A stretch of DNA of 64,000 nt from a virus. Below, one piece after another: positions 61,277 to 64,000 of this stretch. The DNA is taken from the IMG/VR virus record IMGVR_UViG_3300025648_000012, positions 78,722 to 142,721 of that record; one strand, 5' to 3'. A program made the position numbers and the translations under genes. Every line of letters begins with the position of its first letter. Position 1 is the stretch's first letter. The notes beneath the pieces are model-generated. The model ran no database searches. It saw only the letters and a list, made by a program, of their open reading frames with translations, and was not told the DNA's origin.

Positions 61277-61305
61277 TTGACAATTTACAAAGGTTACTAT
61301 ATAAT
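61277..61305 (+). promoter_or_regulatory. Consensus sigma70 promoter
   Basis: TTGACA (61277-61282), 17-bp spacer, TATAAT (61300-61305), intergenic. Confidence 0.88.
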
Positions 61306-61692: not shown

Positions 61693-61941
61693 ATGATTCA
61701 AGTACTAATTCAAGGACCAGAACATTCCAAAAAAGACTGGGTAGTTTTAACCATTGCTAAAGCATTAAGAGAAATGGGAGCGCAAGTATCCGTTCTTGGT
61801 GAGGATACCTACATGGCTCATAAAGCTACAGCTAACATTGAGGAATTTCAATCTAGATTGACTGGTCAAGACATCGTAGTAGCAGAAGTAAGAACTGGCA
61901 AAGTTCACTTGAGATCAACTAAAGAATACGCAGAAGATTAA
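61693..61941 (+). CDS. Hypothetical protein with a degenerate P-loop-like N-terminus
   Basis: AAGGAG RBS. VLIQGPEHSKK...IAKALREMG. Confidence 0.6.
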   Translation: MIQVLIQGPEHSKKDWVVLTIAKALREMGAQVSVLGEDTYMAHKATANIEEFQSRLTGQDIVVAEVRTGKVHLRSTKEYAED

Positions 61942-62101
61942 AAAGGAACTTAACCTTAGCTATTCTAAGCAAAACTTACCCAATTACTTCCGTGGAAGAG
62001 GCAATAGAAGTTCTTTTAGTACTTAACAACATAAAAGAACTGCGAAAAGAATTGGTTAACTTGGGTTTAATAGATGTAATATAGAAGATGCGATATAGAA
62101 C

Positions 62102-62147
62102 ACTAACGCTTACCTCGGCACAACTCTACGGTAAGCGTTAGTCTTTT
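62102..62147 (+). terminator. 13-bp perfect hairpin followed by a short T run (terminator or processing hairpin)
   Basis: ACTAACGCTTACC (62102-62114) pairs with GGTAAGCGTTAGT (62130-62142), then CTTTT. Confidence 0.6.
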
Positions 62148-62157
62148 AATTAGCTAG

Positions 62158-63386
62158 AACCACTCCTAGCTTTGTGTAGTAGTGGGGGTGTTTGCCGCAG
62201 GGTGTGTTTCGCGGGGCACCGTAAAAACAGGATGTTTCACTGAGATAATCTTTGTGAAGAAGTATTGCTGAGAAGCATCACTTTCTTGTAAAGAACCAAG
62301 GCTCCATACTTAGATGCCATAGGCTATTAACTACAGTTATGGTATTGGTCAGTTTAAGAACATAAGCGCTTTTTGTTAAAAAAGTACACACCAGTTAACG
62401 GTTATACGGCCCTTGAAAAAGGTGTCCAAGGTCAAACTCCAAGACAAGAAGGCTGCCTAGTTACGCAGCGACCCGTTAACTTCACAATATTGCGTAGTTT
62501 AGTTAGGTATGCCGTTTACGGATAAACATACTTAATCTGTTTACAATCAAACTACGCACAGGTTTATATCTTGTACGCCTGAGGTTCTAGCCCGCTCTTG
62601 GATGTAGCGGTAAAGGTAGCACTTTGGCGCCTATTGTAATTCTTAACAGGTTGCAGTAGGGTCGGAAGATTGGGGAGGTTCAGTCCCTTAGCTAAAAGTG
62701 TCGTATAGCTTTGTTAAAATGTCCTATACTTAGAAGAATCAGGCTCCCGACATTCTTAATGCTCCAATCGGCTTAAGAGTGGGCCAAAAGCACAACAGGG
62801 ACCTGCGGTGGGATTCGTCCTTTTTCAGGAAGGGCGGTGTAACATAGAGCATAGTGTAACAGGTAGTGAGAAAAGAGAGTTTATATAGTTGATGCGGCTA
62901 AACAGCTTAAAAAAGCCAGCGTAAAGTTAAAAGTAGTGGAAAACACCACGAAAATGCCAAATTGGTGAAAGCTAAGGCGGTGCGCCACACAAGTGGATAC
63001 AGACTCAAAACATTATTTTGTTCTAGCGGTGAGGAATCGTTCTCGAAAAGGTAGTAGGCTGGCAGAGTTTAGCTGAAATCTGAATGTTATTGGATACCAC
63101 CCCTGCTTTGCTTACGCGTGATGCGGCAAAGTAGGAACCGTACTTGATTCAGGTATGGCTGTTTTACTGACTAATCAAAGAAATGTGACTCGGATGCGAG
63201 CGTTTCGGTGGTTGGTTGGGCTGCATTTCAAGCAAGACCTATGTGCAGATGCTGCGGCGGAGTTAACTTTGGGGCGACCAAACCCGTGTAGCAAAGGCAG
63301 TAATCACGCAACCTACTGAACCGGTGCCGGTGCCGAGTGGAATAAATATGGAGTGAGCCGACTAATCCCACTCCATGCTCACTTTT
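62158..63386 (+). ncRNA. Candidate large structured non-coding RNA (about 1.2 kb, boundaries approximate)
   Basis: No ORF of 60 aa or more on either strand from 61942 to 63374. Many helices with G-U pairs on the + strand and three GNRA-capped hairpins. Confidence 0.75.
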
Positions 63387-63573
63387 GTGTTAAAGTGTCC
63401 ATTTTTATTGAATTTTCAAAAAATTGCATATTTTTATATGCTAATTTTGAAGCCTTTTAAGGGGGATATAACCTGCGGATTAAGGCCTCATGGAATAATG
63501 AGGAAAGTCAGTACGAGATACAGTGAGAAAATGGAAGAAAAAGAGAAAATAAATGAAGAAAATGGGAAAATTA

Positions 63574-63700
63574 AGGAAGTGAGGCTAAAAAAAAGAGTAA
63601 GTTAGGAGAGAAAGTGGAGAAATAGAGGAAGTGAGGCTAAAAAAAAGAGTAAGTTAGGAGAGAAAGTGGAGAAATAGAGGAAGTGAGGCTAAAAAAAGAG
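63574..63700 (+). repeat. 52-bp purine-rich tandem repeat (about 2.4 copies)
   Basis: AGGAAGTGAGGCTAAAAAAA.. starts at 63574, 63626 and 63678. Confidence 0.9.
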
Positions 63701-63720
63701 AAACTGTAAATATATAGAAT

Positions 63721-63811
63721 ATAGGTAATAGTGGTTATAGGTAATAGTGGTTATAGGTAATAGTGGTTATAGGTAATAGTGGTTATAGGTAATAGTGGTT
63801 ATAGGTAATAG
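63721..63811 (+). repeat. 16-bp tandem repeat (5 full copies plus a partial)
   Basis: ATAGGTAATAGTGGTT. Confidence 0.95.
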
Positions 63812-63821
63812 GGAGAGATAA

Positions 63822-63905
63822 ATGAACATATTTTATCTAAGTAAGAATACAAAGCTATGTGCTAAGTACCATTGCTATGTGCTAAGTACCATTGCTATGT
63901 GCTAA
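63822..63905 (+). pseudogene. 5' end of a pyrimidine-dimer DNA glycosylase-like (DenV-related) gene broken by a tandem repeat
   Basis: GGGAG plus ATG 63822 gives MNIFYLSKNTKLCAKYHC, matching the MNIF.L......A..HCDKHV.KM family start, then derails into the repeat. Confidence 0.65.
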
Positions 63906-64000
63906 GTACCATTGCTATGTGCTAAGTACCATTGCTATGTGCTAAGTACCATTGCTATGTGCTAAGTACCATTGCTATGTGCTAAGTACCATTGCTATGT
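63854..64000 (+). repeat. 20-bp tandem repeat (more than 7 copies, runs off the window)
   Basis: GCTATGTGCTAAGTACCATT. Confidence 0.95.

Follow-up and report, generated by a model that had tools for sequence, protein, structure and literature searches.

Through A-minor and kissing-loop contacts, the phage RNAs GOLLD and ROOL assemble into cages made of RNA only (PMC12286853). GOLLD features separate 5' and 3' domains; the same work cites a pull-down of ribosomes by this RNA, and encapsulation is among the hypotheses that it lists (PMC12286853). ROOL (RF03087) is a large ornate RNA of phages and prophages whose function is unknown. The segment described here, which spans positions 62158-63386 on the + strand of the window, is probably the gene for a non-coding RNA of ~1.2-1.3 kb that belongs to an uncatalogued family and is kin in kind to these ornate RNAs. 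The candidate resembles GOLLD (RF02032) in being phage-encoded, very large, ORF-free and, as predicted, highly branched with similar folding statistics, and both have a lake origin; a division of the candidate into two domains is at most plausible. It is longer than GOLLD (~800 nt) and gives no match to the GOLLD model; the CGCAAG loops, which are invariant in GOLLD, and the terminal motif are missing. Each putative domain would be about the size of ROOL (~600 nt), but the candidate differs from ROOL in that there is no model match, its two halves are dissimilar and its source is a lake rather than the rumen. The candidate also has no adjacent or embedded tRNA, unlike many GOLLD and ROOL loci.

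Phage genome and genomic setting

The source genome is 142,721 bp long with direct terminal repeats, is circular and has a GC content of 38%. The window is the last 64 kb (64,000 nucleotides) of this genome, and positions refer to the window unless they are given as genome positions. The terminase, portal and baseplate genes place the phage with Ralstonia phage RSL1 and Burkholderia phage BCSR5, to which the terminase is 46-47% identical. The phage forms a deep single branch, and its closest terminase relative is 52-53% identical. Further assemblies of the same phage were found in JGI (3300006104 and 3300025467), Logan (SRR5261039, SRR5261470, SRR5261473 and SRR5262285) and ENA (several ERZ2727 assemblies). 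The lake origin of the phage rests on JGI 3300006104, which we take to be a freshwater lake series. This data set, which contains the same phage, was contributed by K. McMahon (PMC7449369).

The relatives of the phage share the tail genes upstream of the RNA and a 5'-3' exonuclease gene downstream. The candidate segment is located between the tail genes and this conserved exonuclease gene, and none of nine relatives matches the stretch. The genes from 59355 up to the candidate RNA likewise have no match in the nine relatives, which places the RNA in an accessory stretch. The genome encodes a single tRNA, ~65 kb from the candidate RNA.

Composition and coding potential of the ORF-free gap

The gap at 61942-63374 (1433 nt) is the longest without an ORF in the 142,721-bp genome, followed by gaps of about 750 and 515 nt, and the largest ORF-free gap in the nine relatives is 613 nt as compared to 1.4 kb here. 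The first-pass annotation had described this as the only long ORF-free stretch and as richer in GC than its flanks, and both descriptions are borne out. The GC content of the segment is 44.8%, a level that just 1.3% of equal-size genome windows reach, as compared to flanks of 35% and 33%; the enrichment is uninterrupted across 1.2 kb. CpG usage is 0.81 in the segment and 0.56 in the genome. A second GC-rich ORF-free stretch of ~260 nt is located outside the window at genome 75923-76200; it directly follows the phage-class promoter motif at 75923, and the sole tRNA-Arg is close by. This stretch has no match in Rfam or in the nine relatives, and it has an 11-nt word in common with window position 63462.

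The segment is non-coding. Each frame contains 23-40 stop codons, the codon log-odds are at most 0.03 as compared to 0.28-0.41 for real genes, the period-3 signal of 1.1 equals the 5th percentile of the genome, and the six read-through frames have no match in Pfam or PHROG. The use of translation table 4 (TGA=Trp) opens a frame of 197 codons at 62867-63460, and this frame would fit a recoded gene. Its codon log-odds are 0.02, however, and its sole database match is the same DNA; with no codon bias and no relative except itself, a TGA-recoded gene was rejected.

Several features of the composition fit a DNA-level or non-functional element, such as a region for replication or packaging, foreign DNA that was acquired or a long-decayed gene. 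Purine-rich tandem repeats with units of 52, 16 and 20 nt adjoin the segment, its CpG usage stands apart from that of the genome, it has no homologues and its folding signal is moderate. Origins are usually AT-rich with iterons. The segment is GC-rich and contains no significant internal repeats, unlike usual origins, and similar tandem repeats are found all over the genome. Residual coding signal is absent from the segment, and DNA palindromes would be strand-symmetric, whereas the folding signal described below is confined to the + strand. The fold statistics alone are also compatible with an element of this kind, which we consider unlikely although it deserves some weight.

Many unrelated perfect tandem repeats (units of 13-20 and 52 nt) are located at promoter or gene-start junctions of the phage, for example at window 63535-63827 and at genome 545-648, 854-926, 12897-12994 and 14117-14198. 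Their copy number varies, and another assembly (L001) has three fewer copies of the 16-nt unit and one fewer of the 52-nt unit. A gene resembling pyrimidine-dimer DNA glycosylases spans window 63822-64000 and continues into genome 1-500; the call (PF03013, E 7e-4) is below the curated cut-off and covers the downstream part only. A perfect 20-nt tandem repeat of at least 6 copies interrupts this gene near its start, and assemblies break there. A change in the number of repeats would shift the reading frame of the gene, as the unit length of 20 nt is not divisible by 3, and the sequence suggests a possible phase-variable locus.

Predicted folding of the candidate RNA

The first-pass annotation had described the segment as densely base-paired. 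Relative to shuffled sequences this holds only modestly, at the level of local structure. The z-score of the local fold is -2.25 to -2.34 on the + strand and -0.2 to -0.5 on the - strand; the local energy gives P 0.005 (z -2.34) on the + strand, with z -0.17 and P 0.28 on the - strand. Over the first 993 nt, the unrestricted MFE does not differ significantly from shuffles (z -1.39), so a comparison with shuffles, which had been proposed as a check, favors the local fold and fails over the whole length. The + strand forms 35 hairpins as compared to 27.9 in shuffles (P 0.01). The three GNRA hairpins that had been picked out by eye are present, and in total the + strand has 5 GNRA-capped stems of at least 4 bp as compared to 1.07 in shuffles (P 0.004), the - strand has 0, and among 232 genome tiles only 3 have as many. 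Several statistics were applied and the segment ends were set by eye, which makes these single P values optimistic. In the predicted fold, 42% of the unpaired bases are A.

The background of the genome is wide (mean z -0.8, sd 1.8), and some of its coding windows reach a similar fold z. Bona fide GOLLD loci give energy z-scores of -1.0 to -4.7 and hairpin z-scores of 1.9-3.0 in the same tests, and because these values are comparable, the candidate resembles a real ornate RNA on these measures. It had also been argued that the G-U pairs in the helices point to a + strand RNA. That argument is partly circular, given that the helices were chosen allowing G-U on the + strand, while the shuffle comparisons of the two strands do support strand-specific structure on the + strand.

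Most of the fold signal is found in the 5' half of the segment (z -2.5 as compared to -1.0 in the 3' half). All six helices proposed in the first-pass annotation pair fully. The confident helices of the RNA are local and are located at 62491-62558, 62630-62660, 62915-63063, 63102-63135, 63138-63158, 63167-63219 and 63250-63293. For one of the proposed helices, 62751-59/62773-81, there is a stronger 12-bp competitor, 62590-62601/62773-62784, with -18.8 kcal/mol and a pair probability of 0.69.

The RNA can be drawn as two domains of ~600 nt each, defined by two abutting 7-bp helices. The putative 5' domain (62158-62808, +) is multibranched. GNRA loops cap its stems at 62270, 62415 and 62664, and its stable arms are at 62491-62558, 62590-62784 and 62630-62660; it has 19 hairpins as compared to 15.0 in shuffles and a local fold z of -2.5. 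It is possibly closed by the modeled helix 62195-62201/62802-62808. The putative 3' domain (62809-63386, +) consists of an arm at 62915-63063, three confident hairpins at 63102-63219 and a junction at 63250-63390; the arm encloses a GAAA hairpin (62967) and an A-rich linker. Its local arms have pair probabilities of 0.85-0.98, the z of the entire domain is -1.0, and the pairing 62809-15/63364-70 possibly closes it in the model. Two helices that abut end to end in this way occur in 8.6% of shuffles (P 0.09) and the closure lies 8 kcal/mol above the free MFE, which makes the two-domain closure a hypothesis. In addition, the arm 62195-62201 could pair perfectly with 63472-63478 instead. Loop-loop complementarity of at least 5 nt is not enriched (2 as compared to 3.0 in shuffles) and therefore gives no support for kissing loops; an enrichment of such loops was rejected. 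An internal duplication was also rejected, as the two halves of the RNA are dissimilar.

Comparison with known RNA families

By sequence and model comparison, no membership of the segment in GOLLD, ROOL or another Rfam family can be detected. No match for the segment was obtained with Rfam at gathering thresholds on the window, and at E up to 10 on the segment only two junk matches were obtained. The GOLLD, ROOL and permuted-tmRNA models had no match in the segment when they were run on the whole genome. In comparable searches, five GOLLD positive controls reach 150-216 bits; the gathering score of RF02032 is 150 bits and the 3' domain is the conserved part. The ROOL search was run without a positive control. 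The first-pass annotation had placed the segment in, or beside, the class of large structured phage RNAs. A non-coding, branched, + strand RNA is the best-supported reading, and membership in GOLLD or ROOL is not detectable.

An extremely diverged and expanded GOLLD, with a 3' domain beyond detection by the model, would also account for a large lake phage RNA with a two-domain layout. Some GOLLD-like words are present in similar order by eye, with a GUGGA word between two hairpins both at 62993 and at 63337 and AAAGG..UAAU at 63293-63304. The invariant words of GOLLD are, in order, GCAAAAG, the near-invariant CGCAAG loops, GUGGA and the terminal UARUCUCAG; the segment has GUGGA twice but neither CGCAAG nor the terminal word. 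Neither an HMM nor a covariance model from 14 GOLLD loci gave a match in the segment (the model has only 4 base pairs), and in the reverse search the best match of the candidate's 3' model to the GOLLD loci has an E of 0.38, which is not significant. The motifs found by eye were rejected on the basis of these searches, and descent from GOLLD is quite improbable. A resemblance of 62799-62825 to the 3' end of 16S rRNA was rejected as well, because there is no Rfam rRNA match.

The first-pass annotation had found no hallmarks of tRNA, tmRNA, RNase P or introns, and the model searches agree. Group I/II introns and RNase P RNA have no Rfam match at E up to 10. Some divergent introns escape Rfam; for an ORF-less self-splicing intron, however, the flanks of the segment would be expected to contain an interrupted gene, and they are not halves of one gene. 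A tmRNA has some appeal given that two-piece tmRNAs (RF04321) are found in four related phage records and none was detected in the candidate's own genome, and the segment starts with a short helix vaguely like the acceptor junction of the two-piece tmRNA precursor. The candidate differs from these RNAs in that it has no T-arm and no tag frame, is 3x too long and has no HMM or covariance-model match to the tmRNAs of the relatives. In the relatives, the two-piece tmRNA genes (G010:84881-85311, G023:103138-103529, G004:8418-8778 and G003:20329-20774) have structured intervening segments of very different length. A recoded gene, an intron or a tmRNA is thus largely excluded, and taken together the three have only a very slim chance.

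Search for relatives and population copies

Homologues of the segment were searched for in several collections. No homologue was found by blastn of the whole segment and its halves against INPHARED, by blastn against PLSDB, or by exact patterns in IMG/VR. Exact patterns gave 26 matches in JGI metagenomes, all by chance, and 15 chance matches in GTDB. The read-through translations, used as degenerate seeds, gave two matches, both inside protein genes. The pattern searches detect close relatives only, and the result therefore indicates rarity and not absence. No homologue was found in 49-50 terminase-related phage records with BLAST and two single-sequence covariance models, for which the source sequence was the sole positive control, nor in nine relatives with nhmmer, and no similar RNA was found at the loci of homologues of the 82-aa gene that lies upstream.

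The other copies of the segment are all from the same population and are identical over the RNA except for C63298T. This change preserves a predicted pair as G-U, but as a single change it has no evidence value, and with one substitution among the copies there is no covariation. In independent assemblies the RNA segment stays intact, whereas the tandem repeats downstream of it change copy number.

Promoter, boundaries and flanking elements

The nearest upstream promoter is a sigma-70 promoter at 61277-61305 (+), which matches 12/12 consensus positions with a 17-nt spacer and is located ~800 nt upstream of the candidate RNA, with short ORFs in between. Three more TTGACA/TATAAT promoters are found in the phage at genome 51960, 57375 and 67240, and by its sequence the promoter at 61277 belongs to this early-promoter family. 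We infer that it drives the candidate RNA. Genome-wide, three promoter classes can be distinguished. The first consists of the sigma-70 early promoters, which have a leader in common; the second is defined by a CTGTAAATA motif, present at 20 sites; and the third has a longer motif and precedes structural genes, e.g. at window 30915, 44435 and 52560. No promoter of any of the three classes is found at the start of the RNA.

The last confident ORF upstream of the RNA encodes an 82-aa protein (61693-61941, +). Its nearest homologue is 59% identical and is located in the tRNA array of a 331-kb contig, where no similar RNA was found beside it. Small free-standing proteins are among the relatives of the 82-aa protein (see also L188:6001-6213), and further relatives occur as repeats in two very long proteins of 6156 aa (16 matched stretches) and 4292 aa (10 matched stretches). 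Between the 82-aa gene and a strong hairpin sits a possible gene of 42 codons at 61957-62084 (codon log-odds 0.28) that lacks a standard start codon.

This hairpin (62096-62148, +) features 13 perfect bp and a 15-nt loop followed by a short U-run; it has a pair probability of 0.99 and local z-scores of -2.9/-3.4 on both strands. It is terminator-like and stands between the promoter at 61277 and the candidate RNA. It may serve as a terminator, as a processing site or as the RNA's first element. A leader motif at 62155-62175 (+), spotted post hoc, is common to three early-promoter leaders (genome 52004, 57419 and 67284) and, judging from this shared sequence, may mark the 5' end of the RNA. An AT-rich inverted repeat and a second hairpin are located 3' of the GC-rich segment at 63409-63490 (+). 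Positions 63380-63499 give z-scores of -3.2/-3.4 on both strands, a terminator scan made no call at 63409-63490, and these elements are a possible 3' boundary or terminator.

The same elements would also fit a cluster of small elements, such as sRNAs, leaders and processing or antitermination signals, that regulates read-through into the early region. The confident arms are all local and the long-range closure is within chance, the motif at the 5' end is common to early-promoter leaders and there are symmetric hairpins at both ends. However, the segment has no internal promoters or spacers and its GC enrichment is continuous, and a 1.2-kb leader is unneeded because the next gene downstream has its own phage-class promoter at 63704. 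A cluster of this type is improbable.

Proposed mechanism and significance

The lack of coding signal, the structure on the + strand only and the GNRA excess were counted for a functional RNA, as were the unique 1.4-kb gap, the upstream same-strand promoter and the intact copies. The non-significant whole-length MFE, the wide genome background, the lack of a homologue and the lack of an own promoter were counted against it, together with the cost and chance level of the two-domain closure, the unenriched loop-loop complementarity, the missing tRNA neighbor and the terminator-like hairpin that separates the RNA from the promoter at 61277. The candidate is plausible on single-sequence statistics, and we lean towards a functional large structured RNA, a new ornate phage RNA on an accessory island. 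The more specific proposal of a new giant family, ~1.5x the size of GOLLD, with two ~600-nt domains, expressed early and acting as an RNA-only complex or by a new host-acting mechanism, is tentative and its chance falls clearly short of even. A scaffold or oligomer mechanism like that of GOLLD and ROOL, drawn by analogy, is more doubtful still and is given about half the weight of the functional RNA itself.

For this functional RNA, the host sigma-70 polymerase would transcribe it early from 61277 along with a few small ORFs, and the RNA would be released at or near the hairpin at 62096-62148 and would fold into the two ~600-nt domains. By analogy with GOLLD and ROOL, the GNRA loops and A-rich junctions might dock into helices of the same and neighboring molecules, and the RNA might form a protein-free scaffold or an oligomeric shell. 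The RNA might then bind or sequester host translation components rather than act as a ribozyme, guide or template.

The value of the candidate is limited in that the phage is uncultured and there are no homologues as a comparative handle on structure or function. Giant ornate phage RNAs have only recently been shown to form protein-free nanocages, their function is unknown and the generality of cage formation has been named as an open question (PMC12286853). If the reading is true, the RNA would be an unrelated and larger example and would provide an in vitro target for the generality of cage formation.
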